Shown here one piece after another: positions 1-46,760 of a stretch of DNA of 64,000 nucleotides. The DNA is from Owenia fusiformis (taxonomy: Eukaryota): the NCBI GenBank assembly GCA_903813345.2, contig CAIIXF020000001.1, forward strand, positions 7,254,001-7,318,000, written 5' to 3'. Positions within the stretch are counted from its first letter, which is position 1. Each line of letters begins with the position of its first letter. The notes beneath the pieces are model-generated. The model made no database searches. It was given only the letters and a program-made list of their open reading frames with translations, and was not told the DNA's origin. Both the position numbers and the translations under genes were made by a program.

Positions 1-145
1 ATTTCAATGTTCATGTAATACACACATGCATTTATTTTAATGTTCATGTAATACACATATGCGTTTATTTCAATGTCCATGTAATAAACACATGCATTTA
101 TTGCAATGTTCATGTTATACACACATGCATTTATTTCAATGTTCA
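1..145. repeat. 33-bp tandem repeat derived from the last ATP13A intron
   Basis: ATTTCAATGTTCATGTAATACACACATGCATTT x4 or more; single copy at ~10991-11025 in the intact gene. Confidence 0.9.
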
Positions 146-847
146 TTTACCATGGGTGTCATTTCAAACTTTGTAAATATGGCACCATTCGGTGAGCTCA
201 CATGATGAAAGACCTAGTAATCTCTCCAAAATGACTCAAAACTGTAATTGAAACCGCCATAAAAAGCAATGTGTTCTTGATCAGGTGATTGGCAGTTTTC
301 ATCTGAACAACTGGAATTGTTGCCAAGTGGATGGAGGACAGACATACAGAAAGATGAGCTAAAAAGTGTCAGTCACATATTAAACACTTAGTTACTCATT
401 CTCTAAAAACAAATTACTTTACTCACCTCAAGGAGGAAGCATATGAAGAAGTTTGCGACTGCAATTCCAGGATCAATCTGAAGGGTATAGAGGGTGGCGG
501 TTGCAGCTCCATGAAGTCTATTATGAATTGCAGGGGGTACACTGTCAACCAGACAGTCACAGCTGTTAGAACTATCAGATTTGCCAGGAACCAGTCTATG
601 TGGAAAAATAAATAAAAAAAGTCAATGCCTTAATTAATATACCTGTAAGCATATATACTATAGGGTGTTCAATAAGTATTGCTTAATTGTTCAAACTTTT
701 GTCCTGTTGGTTGGTTGGTTAACTTTTACATTGTTCTGTCAAAATTTTCAACATTATATTATTTTAGACAAAAGTTTGAGTCCAGCACCAAAGTATACAT
801 ATATGTTTATCTTATGAAATACTAGGGCATATGGTAGGTGATACATT

Positions 848-1036
848 CAGGCCCGTAGCCAGAGGGGGAGCTGGGGAAGCTTCCGCTCCCTCCCCCCCCC
901 TGGCCAGAAATTCTTTCAAAATCATACAGTTTTTCACCATTCTGGGAATTTTTCGCATGATTTTTAGCCAAAATTGTGAAAAAGCCCCCCCCCTGGGAAA
1001 AAGCTCCCCCTGCTGGTAAAAGCTGGCTACGGGCAA
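848..1036. mobile_element. Short GC-rich MITE near the large deletion junction of the duplicate
   Basis: CAGGCCCGTAGCCAG ... CTGGCTACGGGC termini; a related fragment lies at ~51160-51265. Confidence 0.65.
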
Positions 1037-2429
1037 GCATTGCTAGCTACAATGAAATGTGTGAAGTAATTTATCATTATCGATATAATAAATCTCTTGG
1101 TTAAATTGGAACACATCAATCTTGAATCTCATTGTAATTATAAACAAGGCATTAGTCTCTTGCTTCAGTCTGTTCTCCATGACCAGCAGGCCCAGAAATA
1201 TAAGATCATTTTCCATCTGCTCTCTACAAGGAAAACAAAAATATGTTTGCATGTCCATTATTTATCTCAAAAATATAATAAAACTTGATTGCATTATAGT
1301 ATCTCAATTAAAGTTCATTGTTGGTTAATGAGATCAGGAAAACGGAAAAGAGAATGGGTGTCCAAAAGGATGAATTTGGTTTTGAAAGGAATTGACAGAA
1401 CAGGAATAAGAAACTGTAACATTTTCAGTAGAACAGTCCATCGCATGCCTTACCTCTGAGCTCTTTGTACCTTGACCAGGGACATCTTGGGCAATGGTTT
1501 ATAAGCAACAGCTATCACCCTGTAGCCTTGCTGGGTGTATTGCATTAATACATCATGGAAGTCAACAGGAACTGAAAATACAAAATGTATGAACATTGAT
1601 ATTGGTAAAAAATTCTGCAGGTTTATAGATCTATCCTCATGCCTCCAAAGCTGCGTTATTCAAAGAAAATATACCAAGCGATGAATTCAAGAAGTTTTTG
1701 TTACGGAAGAACATGAATTTGCAATAAATCATCTCACCCTGTAATGCCGTCATCGAAGAACAGTTATCAACAAATTTTACATATACAATTTTGTAAGTAC
1801 ATTTTATTTGATTGGCAAACCTTTGTGTTATACTGTACTATATCTTTTGGGGCTAAAATGAGTCAACGAACAATGTTTTCTCAAAAATGTCACATACCTG
1901 TTTCCTGCCTGCATAATGAGGCCACCATCTCTGGGGCACCTTTTGTATAGAGATCAAAGTGTGTGGAGTCCAGTGTACGTGTGATCACTGACATGCGTTG
2001 TAGGCTAGATGAGAAAGTGAAGTGAAGCACTATGCCTATCTCATAAGGTATATTCTGAAATACAATTACATTGATTGGCAGAGATCTTTGAGGTATTTAA
2101 ACTTTATTTACTCTTTGTGTTTCATGTCATTTCAGTTGGTTACCTCTTAATTACAAAAAACTGTGTAGAACTGGATGTAAGCATGGTTAACAGCAACAGG
2201 AGTTTGTGTTACTTTTTCCAAAAGTCCCTTTGTTTAATAAATTCACCCATGTAAGAAATGAAAATTATTCCACATCATTAATTCTAGTAGAATGCAATAT
2301 AAGTGTTAGACTATTGTTCTAATAATGTTTAGAACATAAATAATTTAGAACATTTAACAGTTATAATGAAAAATGTTTTACGTACAATAGTGTGCTATAT
2401 AAACACAAAGCATCTGGGGTTTTACGATC

Positions 2430-3285
2430 ATGTATTTATGCTCATTATTATATCTTTTATTGACATTTTATATCAGTTACATGATACATTAGTCACTAAT
2501 CACTACAAACTACTTCTACAACTATTCTAACTATTCAAAAAATTATTATACAGTGTGATGCACACTACTAAACATATTAAATTTAATTCTGAAACCATGA
2601 TATATAAATTTTCCGATGTGTAATTGAACAGTCAAGTGTTCATTTGCCATTAAACTTTTAAAAATATATGGGTCATCACAATCAAAACTAGGAATAATTT
2701 CTTTTAATTTTGAGTACAAACATTCTCTTAGTATTTCATATTTGTTACATCTTACGAGAAAATATTCTTCATCTTCAATACAATTACATGTTGAACATTT
2801 TCTCTCATTAAGGGGTTTAGGGAAAGGTTTACAATGTCTACCCGTCTCAATATGTAACTGGTGTGAACTTAATCTAAATCTTGCAATACATTGCCTATAC
2901 TTTCTATTATCTAACCTTAAGTATGATTCACATTCAAATTTGGTTTTATATTTACAATACGTTCTGAGTATAGGTGCACACATAATAGCATTTTGCCAGT
3001 CGGCACGATACTGTCTCATCAAAGTGTTATTTACATTTTTTTTAAATATTTGTCCCAGAATTCTAACATGCCACATTTTTCAATTATTTTGAAAACTCTG
3101 GATGCCCATGAGGGAAACCCAAGATTGTGTAACTCAAGCTCATACTTATATGTTTCATATAATATGTTAGTTGGGCATAGTCTCAGGATTCTAATCCAAT
3201 ATTTTATCAATTGTGCTTCAAATTTTATATACAATGGATATAAAATACCTGATGTAAATATTGCTTCAAATAAAATATTCTTATC
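2430..3285 (-). mobile_element. 3' fragment of a CR1/L2-group non-LTR retrotransposon
   Basis: ORF 2546-3076 contains ARFRLSSHQLHIETGRH...ERKCSTCNCIEDEEYFLVRC, the C-terminal Cys/His region of L2/Crack/Daphne-type ORF2, continued by frameshifted ORF 3031-3234. It occupies the place of ATP13A exons 15-16 in the duplicate. Ends approximate. Confidence 0.8.
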
Positions 3286-3980
3286 TTAAGAAGTCTCTAC
3301 ATGAATAATTTAATGGGACAAAATTGATTACTTATGTTTAATCAAAAGTCAAAACAAGGCTTAAGATGCAAAATGTCACCACCTGCCATTTGTTACTGAT
3401 GCCAGTTGCCAAAACCGTCCTCAAAAAAGTTGAAAACCATAATGATATGTTAGCACTTGTGGTGGTGACATAAAAACATTGCAAAATGAGCATCTTGAAT
3501 GGTGAATGTCAAACTTACGTATTGTTGCTTTCTTGACCGTAAGTAGGTACAATTCCCCACATATCAAGGCCATCTTCAGTTAAAGTACCAGACTGAATAC
3601 AGAGACACACAGAAAAATTGTTTCAAACAGTTTTCTCCAAAGCTTAACAGAAATATTGTATTAAAACATCTATAACAAGATGACAGTAATACATTTTACA
3701 GTTTGAATATTACTTAATAAAATATTAATGCAATATTTATTTAATCGTTTGTAATTTCCTCTTTCAATAAATAATAAAGTAATGAAATGATTTTATCTTG
3801 TACAAATTATTGTTTTTCATATGTTTCAGCTGCAAAATGCAGCAAAAAAGTTAAAAAATAAAAGCTAGTAATTATTAAACAGGTACGTGTACTGTATGAT
3901 CTTTTTCAAAACATTTTGGGCAATATTACTATACAACAAAAGAATATTTTAAATTTCAAATTTCATCTCTTTAGTCTAAG

Positions 3981-4964
3981 ATGAAGAGCTGCACAATTTC
4001 ATCAATAATTTTAATGGTTGGACTGATGTTGGTGCCAATGGTATCGATTATGACATACCCAGTGGGTCGTAAGTAACACTAAAAGAATACACAAGTATCT
4101 GTATGATTTATGTGTGATATGTACATAGTACAATTACTATTGTTTATGTTAAAAAATAGGCTTGAAATCTGCTGGATGTGTATATAATAATAATACTGTT
4201 AAGTCATTTGCTGAATCTGGAAACTATTTAAATTCAAAATGTACATTTTTATTGCACATTACTTGTATATACAAACTTGCAAATGGTTACAAAAGTGTGA
4301 CAATTTGTTACGAAAGCAAATCACCACTGCTAAATGCTGGTCTCAAAAAACAAAGGGCAATAAGATACTAATGTTTCCTCTTCTTGGTTGTGGAAAAATT
4401 GGAAAGGCATTTCAATGAACAATATATATACTTCATAAAATTACAAAATACTTTTGAAAGGGGGCCTCAATCAATTTTTTCATTTTGATATTACATGCTA
4501 CTTACAATTACAGTACGTGTATAATGTCATGGGAGGCCATTTTCTTCCATTCATTAAGCTTCACAAACCCATGATTATAGATTAAAAAATTATAAAGTAC
4601 CTTAGAAATAAACTAATAACAAATATATTTGGAGGAGTGCAAAATAATGGCTGGCAGTGAGTAGTTAGAAAACCTAACTACATGTACATTCTAATTTATA
4701 AGAAATATTTTTAACACTGATACGGTTTTATTTAGACCGTGATAACACAACCTTATTTTAAAAGTAAACCTTTGATATAATAAATATTTGACTTCAAAAA
4801 CCCAAAATGGGTATACTATATATATTTTAGCTTGTGAGTCTAATCCCTGCCAGAATGGAGGTTCCTGTGTGCCTTATGATGATGGTACATTCTCATGTGT
4901 GTGCCTATCATCATACAAAGAAAAGCTGTGCCAGACTAAAACATCATTTGTAAACTGTTGCTAA
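3981..4964 (+). CDS. Nested secreted single-EGF-domain peptide, copy B (73 aa), inside the ATP13A duplicate
   Basis: Exon 3981-4068 encodes [29 protein letters not shown] with a phase-1 GTAAGT donor. Exon 4831-4964 encodes (P)[43 protein letters not shown]. Frame open, splice sites intact, all 8 exon-2 cysteines kept. The only indel versus copy A is 9 nt and in frame. Confidence 0.85.
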
Positions 4965-7900
4965 TAAATGGTGAACCAACAACAAATGACTTTCAGAAAC
5001 TTGCACATTTTCTATAAAAAATTTTAAATTGACAATAAATTTCTGAAAGAAGAGTAAACTTCATTTATGTTTTGTCAGACTAAATGCAAACATACCTTTA
5101 TCAAAATGAGAGAGAAATGGTAAAATGCTAAATCTCACCAGAAAGTCAAGATCAGGGAGGCTATTTCAAGAAAATATAAGGATTGCTAAACAGGTGTTTA
5201 TTTTGTAGGTAACTAAATAAAATTAATTGACTTACTTTATCAAAACATACAACATTTATTGAGCCAGTGACATTAATACTACTAGGACTGATACAGTAGA
5301 CCAAGCGGTCCTTTAGTCTGGACTGAGCAAATACGATGCCTATGGTCATGGCAGCTGGCAATGCAGGAGGAACGACAATTGTCACCAAGTCTAGGACACG
5401 CAGTACCACATGACCTGCACTATCTCCACGTTGAACCTGAAGATTAACAAATTAATACAAATATCAATTTTCACGCTCTTTTCATGTTTTCTTACATGAA
5501 ATAGTTACTATTACGGTAATTATTTCGAACTTGATGAGCATGTGTGAAATAAAAATAAGAAACAAATCATATATTTTGTAAACAAGTTCCTAGCAAAGAA
5601 TAATTTTACTTAAAAGTGGTATTCAGTGTAAACTCTCTTATTCTACTATTTTGCAGTTTTGGTTTAGCGTGATTTGTATGATTTATAGCTCTATGTGCTG
5701 TGGTGCTTTCTTTTCAAATGTTGGTGTACTGAAAAGTAAACCAGCTGCCAGAGCTAAATATTTATATCGATAGGGGCCTTAGTTAATGTAAACAACCCTT
5801 GACACAATTACCTGTTCTTATGACAACTGCCTTAACCTTCTCGCTGCCATAGTAACGTGTTTGAATGACCTTAGTGCCACAGAATAGAACATGTCTTGAA
5901 TGTTGCTTTATGTTAAACATCACTTCCTTAATGGTAGATAGCTGAGGGTTTGGCAATGGAGTCTTAGTGACTGGAACACTTTCCCCTATAAACAAATATT
6001 TTACATGAAAAGGAAACTAGAATGACAAATTAATAACTAATTAATAAATAAATATAAACTAGTGGGTAATAATGAAAAGTTTCCCCCATTTCTAAAGCGG
6101 CGATCTTGAAAAAAATTACTCACCAATATACAACTTTGCAAAAATATGAAGCAAATCCATCCACTAGTATTCAATTTATCTTATATTATATCTTATGGAC
6201 AGACAGACTGACTGACTGATGGACAATGGGCTTCACTATATCCCTACCAAACTTTGTTAGTATAATCAAGTGTAAGAGTTATCTTCCGTCAACTGAAAAT
6301 ACATTACCTGTCAACATGCTTTCATTGACAATACAGTTTCCTGTGATGAGAACGGCATCAACCTGCATGACACAGCCCTGGCATGGAATCTCGATGATAT
6401 CACCGGGGACCAATAAATCTGATGGAACATCTGCAAAGTCTGGAATAAGGAAAATATTGACACTATTATTTGGCCATAAACATACAGTGCCATGCAGGAA
6501 AAAGAAGGTCTGAGGTTAAATGAATTTAGTTTTGTGTGGAAAGTGGTGCAACAATACTATGCAACAACTATAGTAGTAAATCCAACAACAAGACAGTGTT
6601 ACAAAGATATTCACAAAATTGTTAAATGCAAACCATAAAATGTTTTTTTCAAGTACAAGTTATAATATCATAGATTTGGGCCTCTTTCAGAAATAAATAT
6701 TAATTCTCCAAATTGATTTACCATTCTTTCCCTGGCATACACCGACAATTTCTTCACTGTGGATGGTCTCCTTCAAAGCTCTCTGCATCTACAAATAATA
6801 ATAATAGCGTAGCTACTACTTTCACAGGTATCTTCACGACAAATGCATTTTTTTAATAACGTCTATATCTCTATCAACATACTTAACACAATAACGCATG
6901 AACTAATGCAACTTATATGTATGGAATAATACCCTCATATAAATATTATCAATACTGGTTACTATACGAATAAAATTGGCATATTTATTGGATAAATAGA
7001 GATTATTTACTGGGAGGAACAGAATATACAATGGTCAACAAAAGGTCAGGCTATGGAAGAAAAACATCATGGATATTGATATCTGCACGAGCCAGCAAGC
7101 CAAGTGCAGGTATCATACCAATTTATAGATAAAAATCATATCACTCAAAATTCATAGGATATACAGCACTCAATGTATCAATTTTGTAAATACAGTGTAC
7201 TGAACATTATAATGAAACATGTGTCCTTACCTCTGTTATTAGAAGTACAAGTTAAGTATAGGTTTAACATGTACACGGATAGAATTAAAACCATAGCTAA
7301 CTCTCCTGAAATATAAACAAACTGTAATAATGACTCCTTTACCTAAAATCATTTGTATAATATGATGTACATAGAGTGTCAAAAACAAGTAAACCAATTT
7401 TTCTATCCCTAAAAGGCTAAATGCTTATTTTTAAGCTATTTATTATAACTAGTAAGTAGTACGATGCTTTCTGACACCAACTTATTGAGACATAGACAAA
7501 TTCCATGTGTTATATAAAATTTAATAATATTCCACTATGACAATTAATTATAAAAGGATGCAACATTATTATATATTAGGGGTAGCAGTATTTACTTATT
7601 AGATCAATACTTTCAAAATGAGAAAGTACAATAGTCAACTTATTAAAGACTTGTACCTCCTGTCTTTATCTTTCTGTGATAAACCCTTTGCCTCATGGAA
7701 GTATGAACATGCATGGTTGCTCTCAAGGCCCCTAAAATGTAAACAACAAAAACGATGAAAGTGAGCGTACATTGAAAAATGTTCAAGAACTCAACAATTT
7801 CTTATTAGGAAAATATGGGAAACAACCTCTCAAAAATTAAAAATGCACTTTAGTCCCTGATCTGGACCCTCTGAAAAAAAGTTTTGTTGTCCAGTACTTT

Positions 7901-10444
7901 CCCACATAAAATGATTGTACCGTTTGAAAGAACAGACTTCCCTCTTAAAGAAAACACCTCTTCTATTGATGTAAACAGGGGCAAAAGGCACCAAAACGGT
8001 CTAAAGTGCAATTAACATAATATATGTGTAATATTTTATTATAAATAAAAACCACATAACAGATGTACTTCAAATGTTCACACATGTTACATGGTAAAAA
8101 GTCCTAGACCTCATTATTTTTTCGGTGACCATCTTGCATTCTGGCAGCCATCTTGGAAGTTTTAAGATAAATCTTGTCATCACGATTTAAATGTTGTCTA
8201 GCCTATCAGATATTTTTAAATGAATGATCGAGTGCCTGAGTACATTTTCTCAGATTTTATTCTGCTCTAATTTTTGAATTTCAAAACAGCTGATTTGTTA
8301 TTCGCTGACTTTTTGTCCTATATTTTTTATGAAACATAGTGTATAAACTGATGTTGTTTTAAACCTTGTTTTATTTTATAACCATTTCTAAAGTACAGTT
8401 AACATAATATATGTGTAATATTTTATTATAAATAATTGTTTTATATTTCTTTCTATTGCATATAATTCCAATTGTAATTTATAGAAATGAATTGAATAAC
8501 ATGTATTTCTTTTATGGACAAAACATATTAACACTGCTACAGTGTACATTACTTCTCATATTAATTATATATAATACTCATAGAATTTTTTTTTAAAAAT
8601 CTGAAATCTGAATAAACAAAAGGAAAAGGAAATATGTGTGGTGCAATTATTATTGTTAAGTGACGGTCACAGTGCTATATTTCAGTATAACAGGCTACTT
8701 CACTGAAGGCTAAATCAGATTCATGGCAGTCATATTTGAGGTAACATAAATGTAAAGTAAGTTATGAAAAGTAATGTTGCCAAAAGTAGTTTCACTGAAA
8801 TAGCATCATGCTATAACCAGCAGACCTCTACACAAAATTCTATAGAATGGGTAAATAATACTTCCCATTCTTAGTGAACACTAATGGAGTAAAGGTAATC
8901 TTTTTTGGCACACCCTGTATGATATTTGCAAAATACTGTATTTTAGCCTGAATAAAACATTACCAGCTAATAATTGTAATTATTTTCACTGTACTATTGT
9001 TTTAGAATACTGTCTAATATGATTTAAGGATTTAAGTACAACAATCTATCAGATGGACATATGCATGAGATTAATTGTAAACATAGTTTTAAACACTCAA
9101 TAGGTCATTAACATTTTTCGAGGGCACAATTACAATTGCAATATATCTACTGAGTATTATACACATACACAAAACAAAACATTGGACTAAAATTCATAAA
9201 TTAATCCACAGCTGGTTTTAATGATTTGAACTACACAAATTCACATACATAAATTAATACAACTGGACAAAATATAGTCAAAATAAGCGTGGCATGGTTT
9301 TTGCTGAAAAAATCTTTTAGCTAAGCTTGAAACTATCTTGGCTGGTGCTAATACCTCCCACTCCAGCTATTATTATATCTTCCATGATTGGCAAGAATAT
9401 GTGGAACAATGTTTCAACATTGTAAGAAATAAAAATCTAACAACAGCAGCCCTACAGCTACTGCTCATTTATTAATATCATCCAAAATGTACAAAAGCAT
9501 GAATAAAATACAAGGCAAAATGGAAGCACAATATATAAATAATGATTCTAATATTTACAATTATTGAGCTAATTGTCTTGGGGACACTGCACATTCAAAT
9601 GTTAAACACTGTGCTGATGTCTCTCAAATATTGAGGACGTGGACACTGGTCTCTCTGTTGGAAAACTAGAGTATAGTATTATAAGAATGAATTCTTTCCT
9701 TTTGTCAAAAGAACATGGATTGGGAACATTAGGGATAAAATGGGAAGCAAATGAATGCATGAGCAGTATCTCAAAGAAAATCAATTTTAAACTTCCACAT
9801 TGTATCCACAGATTAAGAGATACAAGTATGGCTATTAAATACATAGTAATTTAATTTGCATATGCACTATGTAGAACCAACAAAAAGGTCACATGTCTCA
9901 TTTAAAAAAAGCAAAAACATGGAAACTTACTAAACCAAATCTTATCGAACTACATTAGATAAATCTTGATATGACTTTTGTAATGTCAACATTCAAAGAA
10001 AATAACCTAATATGGACTTGTACTGTGATTCTCAGTACATAGCTGGTGAGAAGACAGTGGTCCTTACTTCAAGACCAAGAATGTTATATACTTCCTTTAA
10101 TAAGGTAACAATTTTAAAAAAAAACAGAAAAAATGAGTATCGAAGACTACACAAAATATCAATCCTACAAATTGCACTTTACAAAAACTGTTGTAAAAAG
10201 AAGTCTTCGTACATAAAGATACTCAGCTTATAGACTATAAATATAATATCATAATAAAAAAAAAGTAACCCATGCAACTGACAAATATGAACTCATGTGT
10301 GTGACTCTTAAGAGGCAGCCAATTAAGGGAGATTAACCCTTCATTAACACACAATTGTAAACACTGTAAGAATTCAGGAATTAAGCCTTGTTTATAAGCA
10401 AATATGAAAAAGCCATAAGTTCTTAAGCACCAGTCTCCCTTATG

Positions 10445-13400
10445 TCATAGTTGGGTAGCACTATGCCCTAGCTGTAAAAGTGGTACATTGTTATGTGTTG
10501 TTAAGTTGCTCATTTGATGTAATTGTTCATTTCTTATGGTTCTGTCAATAGGGACTGGGTATGTATCCACTAAATCTGTGGGTTCCTGACTGCTAAGCAA
10601 TGGTACCACATTCCCCTCAACAGGATGATCGGGAAGTATTGCATTGGGGTTTGATGAGCCACTATTGGGCGAGACAAGACTAGCTGTCCCACTGTAACCA
10701 CTATCTGGTTCTGGAGATTTAGGACTTATCAGCTGTGTGCTATCACTGAGAGGTGTCAATACAGTAGTGGGGCTAATGTCATCTACATCCACTACTCCAG
10801 GGGAACTTTCAATACGGAGGAGGTCCACAATTGACTGAGAGGATTTAACAGGTGGCCACTGTGGAAGCTCTGCAATTTCTTCCTCTACTGCCTCATAATG
10901 GTAGCGATCATCACGGTTCATGCAACGTTGTAATGCATTCTGGCATTTCTGCCTGATGAGATTAGTGTCTATGAGGAAAGTCTGCAAGTACATGTAATAC
11001 ACACATGCATTTATTTCAATGTTCATTTACCATGGGTGTCACTTCAAACTTTATAAATATGGCAACATTCAGTGAGCTCACATGATGATAGACCTAATCT
11101 CTCCAAAATGACTTAAAACTGTGACAAACAATGGTGTAAATTACTTGCACAAGGCCCCATAATGTGTTCTTGATCAGGTGATTGGCAGTTTCCATCTGAA
11201 CAACTGGAATTGTTGCCAAGTGGATGGGAGGACAGACATACAGAAAGATGAGCTAAAAAGTGTCAGTCACATATTAAACACTTAGTTACTCATTCTGTAA
11301 AAACAAATTACTTTACTCACCTCAAGAAGGAAGCATATGAAGAAGTTTGCAACTGCAATTCCTAGCAGGATCAATCTGAAGGGTATAGAGGGTGGCGGTT
11401 GCAGCTCCATGAAGTCTATTATGAATTGCAGGGGGTACACTGTCAACCAGACAGTCACAGCTGTTAGAACTATCAGATTTGCCAGGAACCAGTCTTTGAG
11501 GAAAAATAAATAAAAAAAAAGTCAATGGCATAATTAATATACCCATAAGCATATATACTATAGGGTGTTCAATAAGTATTGCTTAATTGTTAAAACTTTT
11601 GTCCTGTTGGTTGGTTAACATTTACATTGTTCTGTCCAAATTTTCAACATTATATTATTTAGATAAAGTTTGAGTACAGCACCAAAGTCAACATGTATTT
11701 ATATCTTATGAAATACTATTTGTTGGACGTTTAACTCTGAGCGCTGAACACTATCCTCATATATAAATATATCGAAGTAGGAATGTTAACATCCCAATTA
11801 CTGGCTCAACAAAATGAGGCACGGGAAAATACTACTGAAATTTACTTACAATTTGAGAAAATGCTTTTCCTATAAGGAGAACCCTTGGAGTATATGATAG
11901 CTAGAGTAATGTACTGGAAGGCAGAGACAATAAAGACAGCATTCTCCTCATCACTGGCGTATTCGTCGTCTTCATTGGGAACAAATGGCTCAAACCTGTA
12001 GGAAAATTGCCAAGTGTCATTATTAAGGTTTTTATATTGGAATGGAATAAAGAATCAGTTACATGTTTTTAATATTATTCTATACATACAGAGGAAACAG
12101 TAGAAACCTCACTAAATAGAAACAAGGTATATACAGCCAGATGTGAACCAGTAGAGGTTGACTGTCAAGGGTCTACAGGATAATCCCTCTGGAGAACATT
12201 AGGATTATTAGGAATAAATGGCAATACAAGGAAGCAGGCGATTGGAAGCATTACAAGAACAGCAAGGAAAGCATCAAAATAGCTCTGGATCAAAAGAGCA
12301 GAGAACTGGAACACAAAATACATGTAGACACCAACTAGAAGTATTTAGCTTGAGAAGCACACACTTGTCCCACACCACTTTGTAGGGGTCACCTGGTAGA
12401 GATATACAATGTTGAAAGACCCGAAATAACAATGAAACCTGAGGCACATTGCTGATGATGGGACAAGCACATAGAGTAACACCAAAGTATGTTTATCAAA
12501 GTACATGATTAAATTGTCACCTTCTCCATAGTCTCTGGACATTGCCAAATGACCACTGCTTATGGAAATTCTTAAAAAATCCTCTACATTTCATTGATAA
12601 AACGTCCCTCCAAATATTCCCAGAACTTAAAGAGGATTTTCATCATTTGAAGAAAGGTTCTCCCCTGCCAATGTAATCTTACATAAAATATTGTGCTGCA
12701 TAATTACTAATTTTAAAGTTTTTTAATATTGCGTAAATTAAAAGGGCATCAAATTAATATTTTGAATTTCCTTTTACTTCTCACAACATTTCAAAAAAAT
12801 TGGAGGAATAATTGTATGTTATAGCAGTTTGCACCTACCATGGTTGTTCCTTAACATAGAACCATGTCCCAACTTGCACAGCAAGCATAGCAGACATCTG
12901 TATGAAGAGAGACATAATAGGAGCAGTACTGATCAGACTCACAGGAGGACGCTCTCGTACAAGTTTAGGGTATGCTCCTGTTCGACCATCTATAAAATGC
13001 AAAATTAGTTAATAGAAAACACAGTGAAATCATGTGCTTTATTTAAGGGCTGTTACTAGAATCCATGCTAAATATTTTAAAATTGAGCTATGAAAGTGAC
13101 TGACTCCTCCACATATAGTCATACAATTATCACTGAACATGGAAACCTTTTGAAGATAAGGGTCAAATCAACCTACCAGATATTTTAACTATATAATATG
13201 GATGGATATGAGTACAACGAGGTTAATTTACATGAAAATGAAATGTAAAGGAAAAATTATGCTCACATGTAATACTGAGTGTCGTCAACAAGGCTAGGTC
13301 AATGTAGAGGAACTGGAAGTCTGTCAGGTTAGCACCAATCCAGTAGAGTAGAAGAACTGATATGAACTGACACAGAGAATATGTGGCCATGTATTTAAAG

Positions 13401-16400
13401 ATGCCAAAAGATGTCACTAGCGCAGCTCGCCCTTCCCTGAAACACAATGAGCCAAACTTTGCTATTTGCTTGAACTGGTTTCAAATTAAAAGAGTAATTC
13501 AGTATAGTACAATATCTCCGTTCAACAAAAGGAGACATCAAAAGGAGATATCAAAATCCTAAAATAATGAATACATGCATTGGAAGAATTAATTGTATTT
13601 ACAAGATGTATGAAGGTGATCTTACTTGATGACAGCAGGTATACATGTTATGTTAGGTTCCTTAGAGGTGAATGGGGAAGCAACAGAAGCCTCTGCTTCA
13701 GACAGTGACACGCCTGCATGTGCTGTCTTCAAGGCCCCACAATCATTGGCCCCATCCCCACACATCCCTACATAGTACCTGCAATACAATAAAATGTGTA
13801 TGTCAGTGACACGCCTGCATGTGCTGTCTTCAAGGCCCCACAATCATTGGCTCCATCCGCACACATCCCTATTCCCTACATAGTACCTGCAATACAATAC
13901 AATGTGTATATCAGTGACACGCCTGCATGTGCTGTCTTCATCCCCATTTCTCAACCAATCAGAATGTAGCATAGATGATTCTCCATACATGAACGACAGT
14001 GCATTATGCACATCCGGGAATCTGAATTATATTGTGACGTCACATCTGGGGGAAACGGCCACTGTCAAAATTTATATGAGAGAATGACAAGTTAACCAAT
14101 GTTTTCTTTATTTTTTATGTTTGAATCCTTAAATAAAATGACTTACCCAACCTCCTGCAGGGCTTCTACAAGTTGTGATTTCTGTTCTGGTGACATCCTC
14201 GCAAAAACAGTGCCCCGCACAACCAACTTCGGGATTATGTCAGGGTAGTACTGCCGGATCAAGCCCCAGGACTTGCCGGTGATAGCAAAATGGAAGTGTT
14301 CATTCCCCTCTTCTATCTCAAGAGAGTAGGTCTCCTGCAAATTGAAGCATTCATCAAAATCAATGCGATAATTCAAGTTTTGACATTCATGCCCATTTTT
14401 AAAATCAGGTTTTTAGCCAACCATTCTTCTGAATTTCCAATGTTTGTTAAAATGCTTGGTGAAATAATGTACTTTAGGTCATCTCAATTATGAAAGAGCC
14501 TAAAATGATTAAAATACATGTAGTTTTAATACATTAATGCTTCTACAAATAAAATATTCAGGAAGTGCAAATCAACAAATCTGTTCAACATGCAAGTGCA
14601 CGAGCAGGTTGTTCATAAACAAATGTTATCTGGCTTACCATTTGCTTTGTGTGGATCTCTTCCACTTTGGACTTGGTATCCTCAGCATACGTCCATTCTA
14701 TCTGAGCATTTTGTTTCCCAATAGGTGGCACGACAGTTACAAGGATCACTTTATCGTTGGGATCGATCATTTCACAATCTCTTGCTACACTCAGGGCAGT
14801 TAGCATATTGTCACCTGTGAATGGAAATAGATTGTATGCATTAAATAACATGTAAAGTTTAATTAAATATAACTTTTTGATTGGTATTTCATAGTCTACT
14901 TTTCTTAGGTCTAGTAACCTATTTTCTCGAAGTGCATTACGCCGTGTGACCAAATAACACCACAGAAATCACAGATTATATTTAGATACCATAATATGAC
15001 ATAAGAGGTGTGGAATACCTGTAACCATAATAGTTCTGAGATCAGCATCTCGTAGTTGTCTAATGACAGGGCTTGTCTCTTGCTTCAGTCTGTTCTCCAT
15101 GACCAGCAGGCCCAGAAATATAAGATCATTTTCCATCTGCTCTCTACAAGGAGAACAAAAATATGTTTGCATGTCCATTATCTATCTCAACCAGAACAAC
15201 GGCAACTCCAAAGCGTAGCGAATCCCATCGAACAGAAATGGCTGGCATTTTACAAACAAAATATATAGCAAATATCGTAAAATAACACACATAAGAAAGG
15301 CCACCATTTTCAAAATGGTTGCTCACTAGCCAAGTTGTCATCAGAAGAAGAAATATGCTTTTAAGTAGCGACATATAAATTTTTTTAAAAATCACCCACG
15401 TATACATGTAAATGCTGACGATTTTTTAAAATGGCCGCCTACTACCCAAAATGTCATAAGACAGTATGCAATCCTTACGAGTATTCACATATCAAATATA
15501 AACAAAATCGCTCTATTACTTTTTGAATTATAATAAAAAATGTAAAACAAGAACACAAATGTGTACAATATGTCCCCACCAAGTGGTGATCCCGTGAAAT
15601 GGTTATCCTGAAAATGAGTAGACAAGACTTTACCAACACAATTTGAGGACGGAAAATCCAAAGTGGCCACCTTAAAATTTACCCAGAATGCCAAAAATTT
15701 AGTCAGTTCTAGATTTTCATACTAAGAACCACCCCTGAAAATTTGAAATTGATCCGTCACACAGTTAACCAGAAAACATGTAAACAAGACTTTACAGACA
15801 AGATTTCAGGATGGAAAATCCAAAATGGCTGCCTTGACATTTACCCAGAATGTCAAAAAACTAATCTGTTTGTAGATTTTCATACTAAGAATCATCCCTG
15901 AAAATATGAAATTGATCTACCAAACGGTTCACCCGAAAACGGGTAGACAAGACTTTACAGACAAGATTTTAGGACAGAAAATCCAAAATGGCTGCCTTAA
16001 CATTTACACAGAATGCAAAAAAACTAATCAGATGTAGATTTTCATATGAAGAATCATCCCTGAAAATTTGAAATTGATCTATCAAACCGTTCACCTAAGA
16101 ACGCGTAGACAAGACTTTACAGGCAAGATTTTAAGACGGAAAATCCAAAATGGCTGCCTTGACATTTACCCAGAATGCAAAAAAACTAATCAGTTCTAGA
16201 TTTTCATACTAAGAATCATTCCTGAAAATTTGAAATTGATCTACCATACAGTTCACCTGAAAACGAGTAGACAAGACTTTACAGACAAGATTTTAGGACG
16301 GAAAATCCAAAATGGCTGCCTTGACATTTACCCAGAATGCCAAAAAACTAATGAGATCTAGATTTTTATACTAAGAATCATCCCTGAAAATTTGAAATTG

Positions 16401-19400
16401 ATCCACCAAATGGTTCACCTGAAAACGCGCAGACAAGACTTCACAGACAAGATTTTAGGACGGAAAATCCAAAATGGCTGCCTTGGCATTTACCCAGAAT
16501 GCCAAAAAACTAATGAGATCTAGATTTTTATACTAAGAATCATCCCTGAAAATTTGAAATTGATCCACCAAACGGTTCACCTGAAAACGCGCAGACAAGA
16601 CTTCACAGACAAGATTTTAGGACCGAAAAATCCAAAATGGCCGACAATAAAAAAGTCCTTATGAGTTTTTGCTGATTTCTTTTTACAAAATTATCACATA
16701 TAACTACTGTTAACAATAAAGTAGGCTTTTACAACAAAGTGCATCTGAAATTATTTATAAAGCTACTAAATAGTTAAAGTATGAAAACTCAAAAACACCA
16801 TTCAATATGATACAAAGTATTATCGCGCGCTAACTTTTCTTAGGACATTCAAAATGGCTGACACGACTGAGCTAGCAGGTCCAAAACCTAATCAGATCTA
16901 GAATGAAGTGAGCTGAACAAGATGTTAAAGTTTTAAAAGCAACTGTGAAGCAGTTTTTCTTAAAGTTTGCAGACAAGGATTTTAGCATTTGACTTCAAAA
17001 TGGCCGACAGGAAGTAGGTTTCGAGTTAAATTTTTTTCATCCACATCTATAGGCACTCATAAGTTATCCCTGAAAATTTGAAGGTGATATCTGTAGCGGT
17101 TTTGGAGAAAACTCCCGGACGTACGGACGGACAGACAGACGGACGGACAGACGGACGCGCCTAGGCCGACAATATGGCCCCACACTATGTGGTGGGGACA
17201 TAATAACACACATAAAAATGGTGGCCATTTTTCAAAATGGCCCACTACTCCCCAAAGTTTTATTAGTCAATGTGCCATGCTAAAAGTATTCACATATCAA
17301 ATATGAACAAAATCACTCCAATACTTTTGGAGTTATAGCAAAAAATGTAAAAATGATGGCCATTTTTTAAAATCGCCACCTTCTACGCGAAGTGTCATGA
17401 GACAGTGTGCAAGGTTCATAAGTATTCACATATCAAGTCTGAACAAAATCGCTCCACTACTTTTCAAGTTATAGTAAAAAACGTAAAAAATGATGGCCAT
17501 TTTTCAAAATGGACGCCTACTACCCAAAGTGTCATTAGACAGTGTGCCATGCTTATAGTATTCACATATAAAATATGAACAAAATCGCTCTACTACTTTT
17601 TGAGTTATAGTCACGCCCGGTGATCATGAAAATGGGACGGAGGGGGGGAGCAGGCAATTTCCGCTAGAAAATTCAACAAATCTGGTAAAATTATTTTTTC
17701 AAGACAGAGTTTACGATTGAATTGCAAATTGAATAAGCGCACGGTATGATAAAATATGTTAGGTATTCTAGGATTATTTTTCAACCGATACTCTTTTAAG
17801 ATATAAGATCTATTAAAAAAGGCGCAACGCAACCAACGTGCAAAAGTCAAAGTTTTTGCTATAAATCAAGCAACAATGGACTACACGACCTGTAATAAAT
17901 ACTTGTAAGTGATGTTATCATAACTAAATTAATGTCATTGCTGAATTTATAAAATAAGTTTCCATACGTAAAATAAAAAATAATCGAAAATAATTAAAAT
18001 GGGACGGAGGGGGGAGGGGACGGAGGGGGGAGTAATAATTCTATAAAGTGAAACATCTTCACACGAATTCTTGTATTTGAAAAATGAACTCATTAACTTA
18101 GTAAGAAACTGGATGATATACCCCTGGAGACTGAAAAATGGGGACATTTGGAGTAAAAGGACTTAAAGTCGCAAAACATCTCTAATCATGTCTTATATAC
18201 ATATTGCTCCCCCCCTCCCCCCCTCCGTCCCAAATTCATTATTTTCGATTATTTTTTATTTCACATATGGAAACTTATTTTATAAATTCAGCAATGACAT
18301 TAATTTAGTTATGATAACATCACTTACAAGTATTTATTACAGGTCTTCCAGACCATTGTTGCTTGATTTATAGCAAAAACGTTGATTTGTGCCTGTTGAT
18401 GGCCTTGCGCCTTTTTTAATAGATCTCATACCTTAGATGCGTATCGTTTCAGAAAAAATCCCAGAAAACCTAACATATTCTACCATACCGTGCGCCTGTC
18501 CATTTAGCAATTCAATAGTAAACTTTTTCTTGAAAAAATAAATCTCCCAGATTTGTTGAATTTCCTAGCAGAAATTGCCTGCTCCCCCCTCCGTCCCATA
18601 TTCACGATCACCAGGCGTGATAGTAAAGAATGTAAAATAACACACGTAAAAATGATGGCCATTTTGAAAAATGGCCGCCTACTACCCAAAATGTCATTAG
18701 ACATTCGCCCATGCTTAAAGTATTCACATACCAAATATGAACAAAATCGCTCAACTACTTTTTGACTTACAGTAAAAATGTTAAATAACACACGTAAAAA
18801 TGGCGGCCATTTTGAAAAATGGCCGCCTACTCCCAAAAATGTCATTAGACATTGTGTCATGCTTAAAGTATTCACATACCAAATATGAACAAAATCGCTC
18901 CACTATTTTTCAAGTTACAGCAAAAATCGTAAAAAGACGTGCAAAGGCAGCCATTTTTCAAGATGGCTGCCATATATTTCTTCTGTATTTACATTTCTAG
19001 CTTAATCAATGTTCTACTTTTTTACATTTAAAACATAATGCTATTACAGTTTTATATGCAGTACCTAAATAACTGTAAAATCGGCACTAAAATGGCCACC
19101 ATTTTTAAATGAGCGGCCATTTTGAAAATCCGTTTTCGAGCAGAACTTCTACCCCCATTGGGTATATGTGTAAAAAATATGAACAAAATCAAGCCAACGG
19201 TATTTGAGTTATTGCCCGGACGGACGGACGGACGTACGTACGGACGGACAGAGGCGTTCCCTATATCCCTTCCGAACTTCGTTCGATGGGATAAAAATAG
19301 AGTGTAATAAAACTTGATTGCATTATAGATCTCAATTAAAGTTCATTGTTGGCTAATGAGATTAGGAAAACTGATAAGAGAATGGGTGTCCAAAAGGATG

Positions 19401-22400
19401 AATTTGTTTTTAAAAGCCCACTGCATGCTTTACCTCTGAGCTCTTTGTACCTTGACCAGGGACATCTTGGGCAATGGTTTATAAGCAACAGCTATCACCC
19501 TGTAGCCTTGCTGGGTGTATTGCATTAATACATCATGGAAGTCAACAGGAACTGAAAATATAAAATGTATGAACATTGATATTTGTAAAAAATTCTGCAG
19601 GTTTACAGGTCTACTACCCTCATGCTTCCAAAGCTGCGTTATTCAAAGAAAATATACCATGTGATGAATTCAATAAGTCTTTGTTGCAGAAAAAAATGAA
19701 TTTGCTATAAATCATCCCACCCTGTAATGCATTCATCCAAGAACAGAAATCAACAAATTTTACATATACAATTTTGTAAGTACATTAAATTTCATTGGCA
19801 AACCTTTGTAGTATAATACTGTTACATATCTTTTGGGGCTAAAATGAGTCCATGAACAAAGCGTTTTCTCAAAAATGTCACATACCTGTTTCCTGCCTGC
19901 ATAATGAGGCCACCATCTCTGGGGCACCTTTTGTATAGAGATCAAAGTGTGTGGAGCCCAACGTACGCGTGATCACTGACATGCGTTGTAGGCTAGATGA
20001 GAAAGTGAACTGACGCACTATGCCAATCTCATAAGGTATATTCTGAAATACAATTACATTGATTGGCAAAGATCTTTGAGGTACTTCAACTTTATTTCTT
20101 CTTTGTGTTTCATGTCATTTCAGTTGGTTACCTTTTAATTACAAAAAAACTGTTTAGAACTGGATGTAAGCATGGTTAACATGATTTATAGGAGTTTGTG
20201 TTATTATTTCCAAAAGTTTCCCTTTATGCTTTCTCATTGCCAATGGTATTTCTAACATGGATCAAAAAGGATAATGCCTTTTTTTCAATAATTTTACTCA
20301 TGTAGGAAATGAAAATTATTCCAGGTCATTAATTCTAGTAGAATTCAATTCAAGTGTTAGACTAATGTTCTAATAATGTTTTAGAAAATGTTTTATGTAC
20401 AATAGTGTACTGGTGCTATGTTAAGTCCACCCGCTATGGCTCAGTGGCAGAGTCAAGGTTACCAATATCGCTTGGCCCGGGTTCGATTCCCGGTTAAGAC
20501 AAGTTTATTTGTGTGTTATGTAATTCTGGGTGTTTGACTGAGTGGTTCACAACTCGTATAGAAGGCTGTGGTGTGTACCTGTATGTCTGTGTACCTGTGC
20601 ACACAAAAGAACACAGGGCTCCTCCAAGGAGGGGTTTCTGGCTCTATCTTCGAGTGTAAAATACGTAAAATACGGAATATACCAATGAGGTATTGCTCGC
20701 CAAATATGGCGGTAACCAAGATATAATAATAATAATAACCACTGGTATATTCACTTCCTATGTAATGAACCACCACAACTACTTACATCTGGTGAGTCAA
20801 AGCTGGCAGATATTCTCTTGTTGTCAGATGTTTTAGGACGTACGACAGTGGGACTGAAAACATCAAACTTTGAAGCATCCTCACCAGGCTCCTCTAAATC
20901 CTAAAATATATTATTTAAGGGAAATCATAAGACACAGCCAAATTAACTACCCATATAAAAATAATATTTTTGAAATCATATTTTCAGTCAATTTTATGCC
21001 TTTTTATATATCCTACTTAAAATGTTTTTGATTGCATTTTTGATGTGACCTTTTTCATATAATCTAGTGAGCCATGCTTTTTTGAGAACATCATATTCCT
21101 GAACTTATCCTTACCCACTTTGTTGATTCGAACATTTTCAAATCCAAGGGGTCTCCACTTATAACACCCTCTATTATAGTGAGAGAATGGCACGTTGCCA
21201 TAGCAGCAGATAAAGGCCCCTTAGGCAAAAGAGAGGGATCATGCTCTGGAGCTTGGAATCTGAAATACAATATATTCATTTCATCATAAGAAAACAGGTG
21301 GTATTTCATAGCAATCATTGATTAATGAAAACCTCACATTCTATAAACATATTAATCTGAGTAGATGAATTCGAAAACATTGATTATATGCACTGTCTTT
21401 AAGAAGTCTCTACATGAATAATTTAATGGGATTACGTATGTTTAATCCAAGGTCAAAACAAGACATTAACATGCAAAATGTCACCACCTGCCATTTGTTA
21501 CAGATGCCAGTTGCCAACACCGTCCACAAAGACGTTGGAGACCATAACGATATGTTACCACTTGTGGTGGTGACATACCACTTGTGGTGGTGACATACCA
21601 CTTGTGGTGGCGACATAAAAACATTGCAAAATGAGCATCTTGAATGGTGAGTGTTCACATCAGCATGTAGAGTTTGATAATACTCTTCAACATACTCCAT
21701 TGTAATATGTGCATGGTCAAACTTACGTATTGTTGCTTTCTTGACCATAAGTAGGTACAACTCCCCACATATCAAGGCCATCCTCAGTTAAAGTACCAGT
21801 CTGAATACAGAAAAATACAGAATAATTGTTTACCTAAACAGGGATATCATATAAACAAGTACTGTATATGTCTTTAATTACATGGTGTGTTTAATTATGC
21901 GTATTTCGCGCTAGACAATTATCACTGAAATATAAATATGAATATTAAAACCTCTCCATAAAAATCGAGGAATGACCAAGTTTAACAAAACAAAAGTAAT
22001 ACATTTTACAGTTTGAATAAACCTAATAAATCATTAATACAGTATTTTATTGTTTGCAATTTCCTTTTTCAATAAATGATGAAGTAATGAAACGATTTTA
22101 TCTTAAATAATCATTGTTTTTCATGTTTCAACTACTGAAAAAGACAGCAAAAAAAATTCAAATATAAATCTGGTAATAATTGAACAGGTACGTCTGCTAC
22201 ATGATCATTTTAAACCATTTTAGGAACTTTTATTCTATAACAGAACATCATACAAATTCTAATTTTAAACTTCATCTTTTAAGTCTAAGATGAACAGCTG
22301 CACAATTTCATCAATAATTTTAATGGTTGGACTGATGTTTGTGTTTGAAATGCCAATGGTAACAATGATTCCATGCCCAGTGGACCGTAAGTAACATTAT

Positions 22401-46100: not shown

Positions 46101-46760
46101 CATTCCTCGTAATCATTTAATTTATCAAGTGGTGTTCATTGCAACAGTATTAAGATGACAAGGCATTAACATGACAAAATGTCACCACCTTGTTGCTCAC
46201 AGTATTATGAGTTCAATCAAAAATAAATTGGTCAATTTGAAGCAAGATGAAAAATACCTATTTTGACCCTGAGAAGGTCATTGAAGGTGAAATCTCAAAT
46301 CTAAAGTCAGATTTGAACTTCTGATAACTTGTTGTAATGATTTTGAAAAAAATTGAAGTCAGTCTAAACAGTATTTGTGTTAAAGTTATTGGAAGTTGTG
46401 AGAATTTGTTACAGACGCCGATCGCCAACCGCCAACCGGGCCGTCAAACAAAACGGAGACCATAACAATATGTCACCACTTTTTGGTGATGATATTATGA
46501 AATTATACTAATAATTTGTTCATGTTTATGGTTCATATTGTTTTTTCATTCTTGTTCCTCCAGGAGATGATTTTGATAATGATATGGCCATAATGAGCAA
46601 AGATCCTAAGTTTAAAGAATGGTGGGTCGCATGTGGTGCCACCTGCCTTGCGCCATTGGAACCAACTGGAGGCCCCCCACCTTGGGAAGGTGGTCCGTCA
46701 TGGATATCTCCAATGGAAGAACTGTTTCATGATGGACATAGCGCTACAAAATATTTATAA
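43115..46760 (+). CDS. L-rhamnose mutarotase (RhaM/DUF718 family)-like protein, copy 1, 126 aa
   Basis: Exons 43115-43204, 45883-45976, 46564-46760 (GT-AG, phases 0 and 1): MGSKRIGQVCRLKPEHYAVYKEMHANVWPE/ILNLLTKVNIRNYSIYYCNKTHLLFFTMEYIG/DDFDNDMAIMSKDPKFKEWW...PMEELFHDGHSATKYL. Family motifs YxxxHxxVWPE, IRNYSI, EYxGxDFxxDMA, WW, MEExFH. Confidence 0.88.
43540..45600. mobile_element. Composite foldback / inverted-repeat region in mutarotase copy 1 intron 1
   Basis: ~44022-44160 is inverted at ~44527-44665; ~43540-43720 is inverted twice in tandem at ~45250-45600. Confidence 0.65.
44735..44907. repeat. ~173-bp imperfect palindrome (hairpin element)
   Basis: ACAAATAGTGACTGCC...GGCAGTCACTATTTGT arms centred on CCGAGGCTGCAGGCCGAGG. 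Confidence 0.85.
46158..46495 (-). mobile_element. Short family C Helentron/DINE-like element in mutarotase copy 1 intron 2
   Basis: Same head (ACAAGGCATTAACATGACAAAATGTCACCACC), one internal unit and the same terminal hairpin as 22702-24374. Confidence 0.75.

Follow-up and report, generated by a model that had tools for sequence, protein, structure and literature searches.

The locus described here, in a window of 64,000 nucleotides of the Owenia fusiformis genome, raises the question of why a small antisense gene should remain intact inside a copy of its host gene that is itself unable to encode a transporter. The window contains two versions of a P5B-type ATPase gene (Table 1). Copy A presents a single open frame across 26 exons on the minus strand, from 37500 to 10445, and with coding exon 1, which begins at 41179, it comprises 27 exons in total, matching the exon numbering of an earlier note on this DNA. 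Its last exon matches an O. fusiformis protein of 1307 aa at 100% identity, and it has the P5 domain and the DKTGT motif and is closest to ATP13A2-type structures (E about 1e-276 against human ATP13A2, PDB 7n70 and 7m5v); the label ATP13A2/3-like is used for the class only and is not an orthology call to either vertebrate paralog. Copy A is thus like the ATP13A2/3 polyamine transporters of the P5B-ATPases (PF12409, PF00122), whereas copy B could not encode one. Self-BLAST shows 102-7851 to be colinear with 10983-33457, and exon mapping against copy A finds in copy B 11 of the 21 exons from 6 to 26 (6, 7, 9, 10, 11, 13, 14, 17, 18, the first 69 nt of 19, and 26), with exons 1-5, 8, 12, 15-16, the remainder of 19, and 20-25 absent. 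The earlier note had already listed the whole exons that are missing, along with two frameshifts and a change of DKTGT to DKSGT, all of which the mapping bears out (5 nt inserted in exon 7, 4 nt deleted from exon 26, and T494S). The splice acceptors (11/11) and donors (10/10) of the host exons of copy B are intact; with its disabling lesions in a genomic copy that has introns, the host part corresponds to an unprocessed pseudogene. Since the 33-bp repeat at the left end matches the last intron of A, copy B continues past the left edge, as the note had also held; no further unit beyond A and B was found within the 64-kb window.

Table 1. Coordinates of the features of the two ATPase gene copies and their nested genes (positions in the window).
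Feature	Position	Strand	Remarks
33-bp tandem repeat	1..149	.	Expansion of sequence in A's last intron (10985-11026)
Copy B	102..7851	-	Tandem, partial and pseudogenised; P5B-ATPase (ATP13A-type) gene, aligned to A 10983-33457
B exon 26	427..595	-	4-nt deletion, frameshift
High-copy element with inverted ends	851..1034	.	Within junction removing exons 19b-25; from contig depth and inverted ends
B exon 19, first 69 nt only	1155..1223	-	
B exons 18 and 17	1454..2054	-	18: 1454-1571; 17: 1898-2054
B-only 821 bp	2397..3217	.	Occupies place of A exons 15-16
B exon 14	3519..3592	-	First codon T494S, DKTGT to DKSGT
Nested gene B, putative non-coding exon 1	3830..3882	+	Donor GT conserved with A; start approximate; predicted from sequence
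Nested gene B exon 2	3975..4068	+	ATG 3981, hydrophobic leader, phase-1 donor
Nested gene B exon 3	4831..4964	+	Single EGF domain and tail ending Cys-Cys; AATAAA at 4963, 5034
B exon 13	5236..5436	-	
B exons 11, 10 and 9	5812..6788	-	11: 5812-5985; 10: 6308-6439; 9: 6722-6788; exon 12 lost at 5520/5560, exon 8 at 6804/6806
B exons 7 and 6	7231..7731	-	7: 7231-7305, 5-nt insertion, frameshift; 6: 7657-7731
Junction, high-copy repeat between B intron 5 and A 3′ UTR	7852..8185	.	RNA-type contigs exit window at 8185
Copy A long 3′ UTR	8185..10444	-	Exons joined to 9302-10980 in X3 record 17; 8185 reached by records 20 and 25
Copy A	10445..41179	-	Intact 27-exon P5B-type ATPase (ATP13A2/3-like), 1307 aa
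A-only repeat insertion	15191..19299	.	Ends same as insertion at 28730-30646
Nested gene A	22131..27392	+	Exon 1 about 22131-22187; coding 22290-22386 and 27259-27392; AATAAA at 27391, 27427
A-only repeat insertion	28730..30646	.	Missing from A-type contig of X2

Intron 13 of both A and B holds an antisense gene coding for a leader (judged by hydropathy), a single EGF domain and a Cys-Cys tail. Its open frame is intact in both copies (76 aa in A, 73 aa in B), as the earlier note had proposed for B, and the EGF exon exceeds the Pfam PF00008 cut-off of 21.5 bits in each (34.6 and 35.5 bits), with a six-cysteine pattern spaced 4-5-9-1-8. B has a Glu three residues before the sixth cysteine, where A has the usual Gly, and a short upstream ATG-stop frame in exon 1 that occurs in B only. 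The note had further claimed that every lesion spares the block at 3500-5450; the nested gene within it is indeed whole, but the block itself contains large differences between A and B, both directly upstream of nested exon 1 (141 versus 42 bp) and in nested intron 2, where segments of 1682 and 2513 bp are A-only and probably represent insertions in A, because a contig of sequencing run X2 crosses both sites without them. Nor does this sparing, which is at chance level, entail that selection keeps the copy for its peptide: four deletions would miss the nested coding exons with P about 0.36 and the whole nested gene with P = 0.30, the frame, the eight cysteines and the splice sites would survive the neutral period with a chance of about 0.54, and the combined chance of a nested gene both spared and intact is about 0.2 (0.36 × 0.54). 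The nested splice joint 4068-4831 is absent from the 15 joints listed (186 more are unlisted), a result uninformative on expression. A contig of run X4 covering 4617-5007 has a depth of 61, versus 7-13 in two adjacent intronic contigs, figures that cannot rank the parts of a gene.

Homologue searches with the EGF exon of A returned no candidate of 23-76 aa, and the longer matches to that of B were multi-EGF proteins in 8/8 cases. The best 150 of 3571 representative EGF matches were all multi-repeat proteins of at least 238 aa, the ESM Atlas gave generic EGF clusters only, and the best PDB matches were Notch1, EDIL3, PVFP-5 and DLK1. The O-fucose consensus is found in both copies, and that for O-glucose in B only. 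The peptide shares its EGF type with the repeats of Notch, Crumbs and the coagulation factors (PF00008), but it is a stand-alone single domain. One feature of EGFR ligands is seen, namely one EGF domain after a leader (the latter by hydropathy), in common with Owenia EGF-1, EGF-2 and NRG, in which, according to PMC4914847, Cys1 and Cys2 are separated by 7-8 residues and Cys6 is preceded by Gly-x-Arg. We considered and rejected an identification as an EGFR ligand: the peptide has a spacing of 4 residues from Cys1 to Cys2, lacks an Arg ahead of Cys6, and is none of these three proteins. Gigantoxin-I-like peptides of sea anemones and Glycera, presented in passages of PMC4202326 as EGF-receptor-binding, 88-89 aa long and equipped with a propeptide, have in common with it a short precursor, a leader, one EGF domain and an occurrence in annelids; compared by description rather than by direct alignment, the nested peptide differs in its length of 73-76 aa, Notch-type spacing, Cys-Cys tail, and want of a dibasic site before the domain and of an Arg before Cys6. 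Tentatively, and with some doubt, we take it to be a small, presumably secreted, disulfide-bonded binding protein of the Notch-repeat type that may serve in recognition or defence and not as an EGFR ligand.

The divergence between the two copies bears on the order of events. Across the host exons, excluding codons 720-740 beyond the breakpoint, A and B show 21 synonymous differences in 296 sites and 9 non-synonymous ones in 1003 (dN/dS 0.12), whereas neutrality of B from the split onwards would predict 35.6 non-synonymous ones (p = 1e-7). As an explanation of the low dN/dS, exon-specific gene conversion was discarded because pS in the host exons (0.071) equals the divergence of the other introns (0.072; 227/3170); the two longest runs of identity measure 131 and 129 nt. 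The low dN/dS and the intact splice sites thus imply a short neutral period for B, of about 0.9% substitutions per site. Where the earlier note had the host gene dying around a surviving nested gene, the order is probably wrong: the copy likely never had a promoter or exons 1-5, and its exons (dN/dS 0.12) bear the purifying signature of a functional allele. The non-coding part of the nested intron differs at 181/1185 positions (15.3%) versus 7.2% in the other introns (p = 5e-15), a twofold excess confined to this intron that persists after gap masking (16.2% versus 7.4%); its GC content is 27% versus 32%, and A carries insertions in it. The nested coding sequence has 27 non-synonymous and 5 synonymous differences with 8/8 shared cysteines retained, and these 32 changes include no stop, frameshift or shared-Cys loss (P = 0.0035 for random changes). 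Its first 16 codons differ at one site, and past the leader the non-synonymous rate is 19% versus 8% in host introns (p = 8e-5); dN/dS comes to 1.5, and to 1.8 in the EGF exon, neither value significantly exceeding 1 (p 0.49 and 0.56). The non-coding parts of the nested locus have diverged as much as the coding part (p 0.10-0.17), which deep ancestry fits better than recent protein change, and the whole fits a hypervariable peptide locus whose alleles were joined on one chromosome.

Contigs were compared for 4 of the 14 listed runs, none recorded as RNA; X3 and X4 behave like RNA in showing the host splice joints 1223-1454, 10980-427 and 3591-5236. RNA-type contigs also bear a tail of 415-448 nt. 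Depth is one approximate figure per contig, and summed depth gives no copy number. In X1, contigs identical to B have depths of 43.7, 39.1 and 43.8, the contig identical to the 3′ UTR of the window's copy A has 42.5, those of the last exon and exon 26 have about 127, and window-A-type letters occur at single depth (46-48) at 801, 807 and 1233. X1 also has a third, frame-intact exon 26 unlike both A and B. Half depth, which the earlier note took as a sign of an uncollapsed haplotype or misassembly, is therefore found to the letter (39-44 for B versus 42.5 for one A allele), but the third exon 26 points instead to a single-dose polymorphic duplicate. In the exon 26 region A differs from the other X1 contig at 13/380 positions (9/10 of that contig's differences listed) and from B at 10/380, so that B lies within the allelic spread there; ten contigs that cover the last exon and the 3′ UTR of A lie 0.4-5.4% from the window (pooled 3.0%). 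Outside exon 26, B is about 7% from mutually agreeing A-type alleles, versus that pooled 3%, and of the 16 listed sites between 1325 and 1748 that align to A, X2 agrees with A at 15. The words of B are present at 0.11 in X2 and 0.06 in X10, A alone sharing 0.068, and no B-identical contig is among those listed for X2, a DNA run. X3, from another study, has a 249-nt contig one letter from B where A differs at 39; being unspliced and at depth 3.1, it indicates presence only. The only long contig of mRNA type among those listed carries A-type letters in exons 11, 13 and 17. B-like nested structures occur in X2 and X4, as do third nested haplotypes, which differ from B by 7-8% in places where A does so by 13-17% and could be other paralogs and not alleles. 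The window is ungapped (no N) in the assembly, on which the tandem placement rests, since no contig among those listed bridges 7851-8185. Single-allele depth, the third version of exon 26 and the lack of a B-identical contig among those of X2 together make B look like a real, segregating duplicate. The passages and two supplements searched of PMC9977687 gave no heterozygosity figure for O. fusiformis.

We lean, if only modestly, toward a reading in which copy B is a young internal tandem duplicate, probably drawn from a divergent allele, whose host part would have been dead at birth, and which joined two nested alleles and is still segregating. The duplicated stretch of the ATP13A locus would extend from intron 5 as far as the 3′ UTR, and an unequal exchange in which two divergent homologous chromosomes took part, a repeat lying at the junction, would most likely have produced it. 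Copy B would never have had the host promoter or exons 1-5, so that its ATPase part would have been dead from the start, and it would since have been reduced by half its length. The antisense EGF mini-gene would have been copied whole, with its own upstream region within intron 13; given a nested locus that is apparently hypervariable in the species, the event would have brought together, on a single chromosome, two strongly divergent alleles of the peptide, and copy B, presumably in single dose, would still be segregating. Certain observations stand against this: four exon-removing lesions are many for about 1% of neutral time, the distance of B from A-type alleles away from exon 26 is above the pooled figure, and the nested intron is AT-richer, with its A insertions, while nested dN/dS is not significantly above 1. 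It is also possible, if unlikely, that the nested gene is an old balanced polymorphism, with lineages 7-15% apart inside an essential housekeeping gene, and that the duplication joined two of them and was favoured for the permanent heterozygous pair while the host fragment was trimmed; if true, this would be a Haldane-type duplication in progress, on a nested gene duplicable without a second working host.

We regard as improbable that B is an older complete paralog, functional for most of its history, and that a later deletion took away its promoter and exons 1-5 together with the terminal part of A's 3′ UTR, with selection keeping the remnant for a peptide with a new role. The host dN/dS is just as compatible with a long functional period, B falls outside the A-type alleles at 1325-1748, and the non-synonymous rate past the leader and the B-like nested structures in X2 and X4 speak for it too, but the sparing and intactness at chance level, the single dose with no B-identical contig listed for X2, the A-type mRNA-type contig, and nested non-coding sequence as diverged as the coding part all argue the other way. 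We likewise doubt that B is a neutral or slightly harmful copy-number variant, its nested gene a passenger yet unhit and its divergence due to local mutation rate or relaxed constraint: the lack of disabling changes among the 32, the near-identical first 16 codons and a twofold excess restricted to the nested intron tell against an account that the combined chance of sparing, a dN/dS indistinguishable from 1, and the Glu and upstream frame of B would otherwise suit. That account shares the origin given in our preferred reading and is compatible with it, differing only on selection; were it true, B would be a copy-number variant of the ordinary sort, in a marine invertebrate that is polymorphic. 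An assembly artefact, with B a second haplotype (a null allele) placed beside A, would agree with the one-allele depth and the unbridged junction but is very improbable, as X1 has three versions and not two (B-identical, window-A-type and the third exon 26) and B-type sequence recurs in X3.

Dead-on-arrival partial tandem duplicates and unprocessed pseudogenes lack a promoter or first exons and show frameshifts, exon deletions and a junction repeat. Copy B shares such lesions but differs by its complete passenger gene and by the constraint recorded in its host exons. A literature search, at the level of titles and listings, found no published report of an ATP13A/nested-EGF locus or of a nested gene that persists within a duplicate whose host part is dead. 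The locus offers a testable natural case of a nested gene multiplying without an extra working host dose, and it brings to light a hypervariable single-EGF mini-protein for which the protein set searched yielded no match of comparable length. A parallel is provided by the heterogeneous duplications of ace-1 in Culex and Anopheles, which in PMC6121789 concern a complete stand-alone gene with proven overdominance (PMC5137868 is listed on the same subject); common to both would be two divergent versions of one locus in tandem, still segregating. Bearing on whether A and B form such a pair are an ungapped tandem in the assembly (with no bridging contig listed), three versions in X1 and two open nested frames, and an origin from a divergent allele is suggested by the host dN/dS and the allele-range distance at exon 26, the distance elsewhere exceeding the pooled figure. 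Unlike in ace-1, the working unit would here be an antisense gene nested in a dead host fragment, and the pair possibly represents a duplication joining divergent alleles outside insecticide resistance.

Self-comparison of the window showed that copy B (102-7851), a broken partial duplicate of the intact ATP13A-type P5B-ATPase gene that we call copy A, is colinear with 10983-33457 of the latter. The earlier note had described this structure accurately: B keeps host exons 6, 7, 9, 10, 11, 13, 14, 17, 18, part of 19 and 26, is missing exons 1-5, 8, 12, 15-16 and 19b-25, and carries frameshifts in exons 7 and 26 as well as a DKSGT motif. Some of the length differences between the copies are not deletions in B: two A-only segments, at 15191 and 28730, have common repeat ends, and contigs of the sequencing run X2 lack the extra DNA of A where they cross the second of these sites and the two in intron 2 of the nested gene. 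Taking out four A-only segments left a trimmed unit of 12,249 bp, with 6,211 aligned in B. Beyond a short stretch of exon 22 repeated locally within A, no further host-exon copies were found within the window.

For copy A itself, we placed 26 exons on the minus strand from 37500 to 10445 in a single open frame; together with an exon at 41179, which supplies the first residues of a 1307-aa Owenia fusiformis protein 100% identical to the last exon of A, this makes a gene of 27 exons. By its Pfam and PDB matches, the predicted product groups with ATP13A2-type polyamine transporters as a P5B-type ATPase. Splicing of A is visible in contigs of RNA-like runs (hereinafter RNA-type contigs), and its 3′ UTR extends to at least 8185. 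Within A, a piece of exon 22 together with flanking sequence is repeated in tandem (13703-13940), the additional unit being out of frame, and the introns of A hold inserted satellite or repeat arrays (22790-24230, 24519-25316, 25372-27050 and 15547-17203), of which the 1.7-kb element at 25372-27050 is matched at 93% identity by the one at 15547-17203. At two places the allele in the window seems to be an uncommon one: 3 nt at 10496 in the last exon are absent from all four runs, and 4 nt at 10253 from three of four. Elsewhere in the window, two similar exons form a tandem pair encoding a mostly microbial-type enzyme domain, here in an animal.

Neighboring features in the window
Feature	Position	Strand	Evidence
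L-rhamnose mutarotase-like exon	46515-46757	+	Pfam rhaM PF05336, 17.9 bits, below cut-off 23.4
L-rhamnose mutarotase-like exon	50864-51082	+	Pfam rhaM PF05336, 31.1 bits, above cut-off 23.4
460-codon open frame, low complexity; last exon of adjoining gene	52475-53854	-	no Pfam match
Exon presumably resembling a ribosome-biogenesis factor	58013-58249	-	no Pfam match at exon length
Exon presumably resembling the end of a myosin regulatory light chain	63799-63942	-	no Pfam match at exon length

We compared contigs of 4 of the 14 listed runs with window positions 160-10980. In X1, which may be the source run of the window, three contigs are identical to B (depth 39-44) and one to the window's 3′ UTR (42.5), while contigs covering exon 26 or the last exon reach about 127, all depths being approximate. 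The X1 exon-26 contig keeps the frame and is distinct from both A and B; the resulting three versions in one run, read with these approximate depths, argue for B being an extra copy in single dose rather than a simple second haplotype. No contig bridging the B/A junction was among those listed. The share of B's words was 0.11 in X2 and 0.06 in X10, close to the 0.068 for A alone. None of the eight listed X2 pieces is identical to B, and X3, from a different study, includes a piece of 249 nt with a single difference from it; together with the identical contigs of X1, this indicates that B segregates. The published assembly, from which the window presumably derives, was made from one male with haplotigs purged (PMC9977687).

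Intron 13 of both copies holds, on the plus strand, a nested gene of three exons: the first is putatively non-coding, the second carries the ATG and encodes a hydrophobic leader, and the third, the EGF exon, is followed by AATAAA. The third exon encodes one EGF domain, exceeding the Pfam cut-off in A and in B, and a tail with two terminal cysteines; the predicted peptide has 76 aa in A and 73 aa in B. Hydropathy alone points to putative secretion. Across 72 codons the copies show 27 non-synonymous and 5 synonymous differences and one 9-nt in-frame indel, with no stop and with all eight shared cysteines retained. As 32 random changes would leave no stop and the shared cysteines with P=0.0035, the nested locus is a gene under constraint; its dN/dS is 1.5, without significant excess over 1. 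In the protein set searched, three words of the EGF exon of A were shared by no protein of 23-76 aa, suggesting that no product of this length has been annotated for either copy. The closest matches of the domain are Notch-type repeats, and it is distinct from all three Owenia EGFR ligands in the literature (PMC4914847), whose spacing and Arg it lacks.

The earlier note had read the sparing of the nested block as a sign of selection retaining a dead host. This sparing is not meaningful: when four deletions as large as those seen are placed at random along the trimmed unit, the chance that they leave the nested coding exons untouched is P=0.36, and that they leave all of the nested gene untouched is P=0.30. 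The host exons of A and B differ at 21 of 296 synonymous and 9 of 1003 non-synonymous sites, the latter against 35.6 expected for a B evolving neutrally ever since the split; given also that all 21 retained splice sites of B are intact, its neutral period was short, at about 0.9% (95% range 0.4-1.7%) substitutions per site. The nested frame would survive such a period by luck with P=0.54 (0.70-0.32); retention of the duplicate as a carrier of the peptide is no more than a possibility.

A purifying signal in the promoterless B could mean a former complete paralog or a recent copy of a divergent working allele, and we favor the second. B would then have been copied recently from a working allele already different from A, by an internal tandem duplication spanning intron 5 to the 3′ UTR. 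RNA-type contigs of X3 and X4 cease to follow the window at 8185, beyond which they continue for another 415 and 448 letters, respectively, and 7852-8185 is a high-copy repeat, which places the junction inside the 3′ UTR of A, as expected for such a duplication. However, deletion of the front of a once complete paralog would give the same junction. Speaking against the favored reading are also the divergence of about 7% between B and A in most introns, an X2 allele that carries the letter of A at 15 of the 16 aligned sites listed between 1325 and 1748, and the four large lesions, which are fast for so short a neutral time. In its favor, contigs over the last exon and 3′ UTR of A lie 0.4-5.4% from the window (pooled 3.0%), and around exon 26 A is nearer to B (10/380 differences) than to the other X1 contig (13/380). 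Of the earlier proposal that the host died while its guest survived, the structure is real; as to the order of events, it is more likely that the host copy was born dead, with the nested guest copied whole.

Non-coding differences at the nested locus amount to 181/1185 (15.3%) versus 227/3170 (7.2%) in other introns, an excess unchanged by gap masking, and its coding and non-coding divergence is about equal. Third types in X2 and X4 lie 7-8% from B where A and B differ by 13-17%, and two of them share a B-like structure. Old allele lineages held at a selected locus within a conserved gene leave such a pattern; extra paralogs or a locally raised mutation rate could also produce it. Our literature search, at the level of listings, found no published account of this locus or of a nested gene in a dead host duplicate. 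With its hypervariable nested gene and a probably allelic origin of B, the locus merits population study. If the third types are alleles, B put two nested allele lineages onto one chromosome, and would in this resemble the heterogeneous duplications of ace-1, which likewise place two divergent versions of one locus on one chromosome (PMC6121789).
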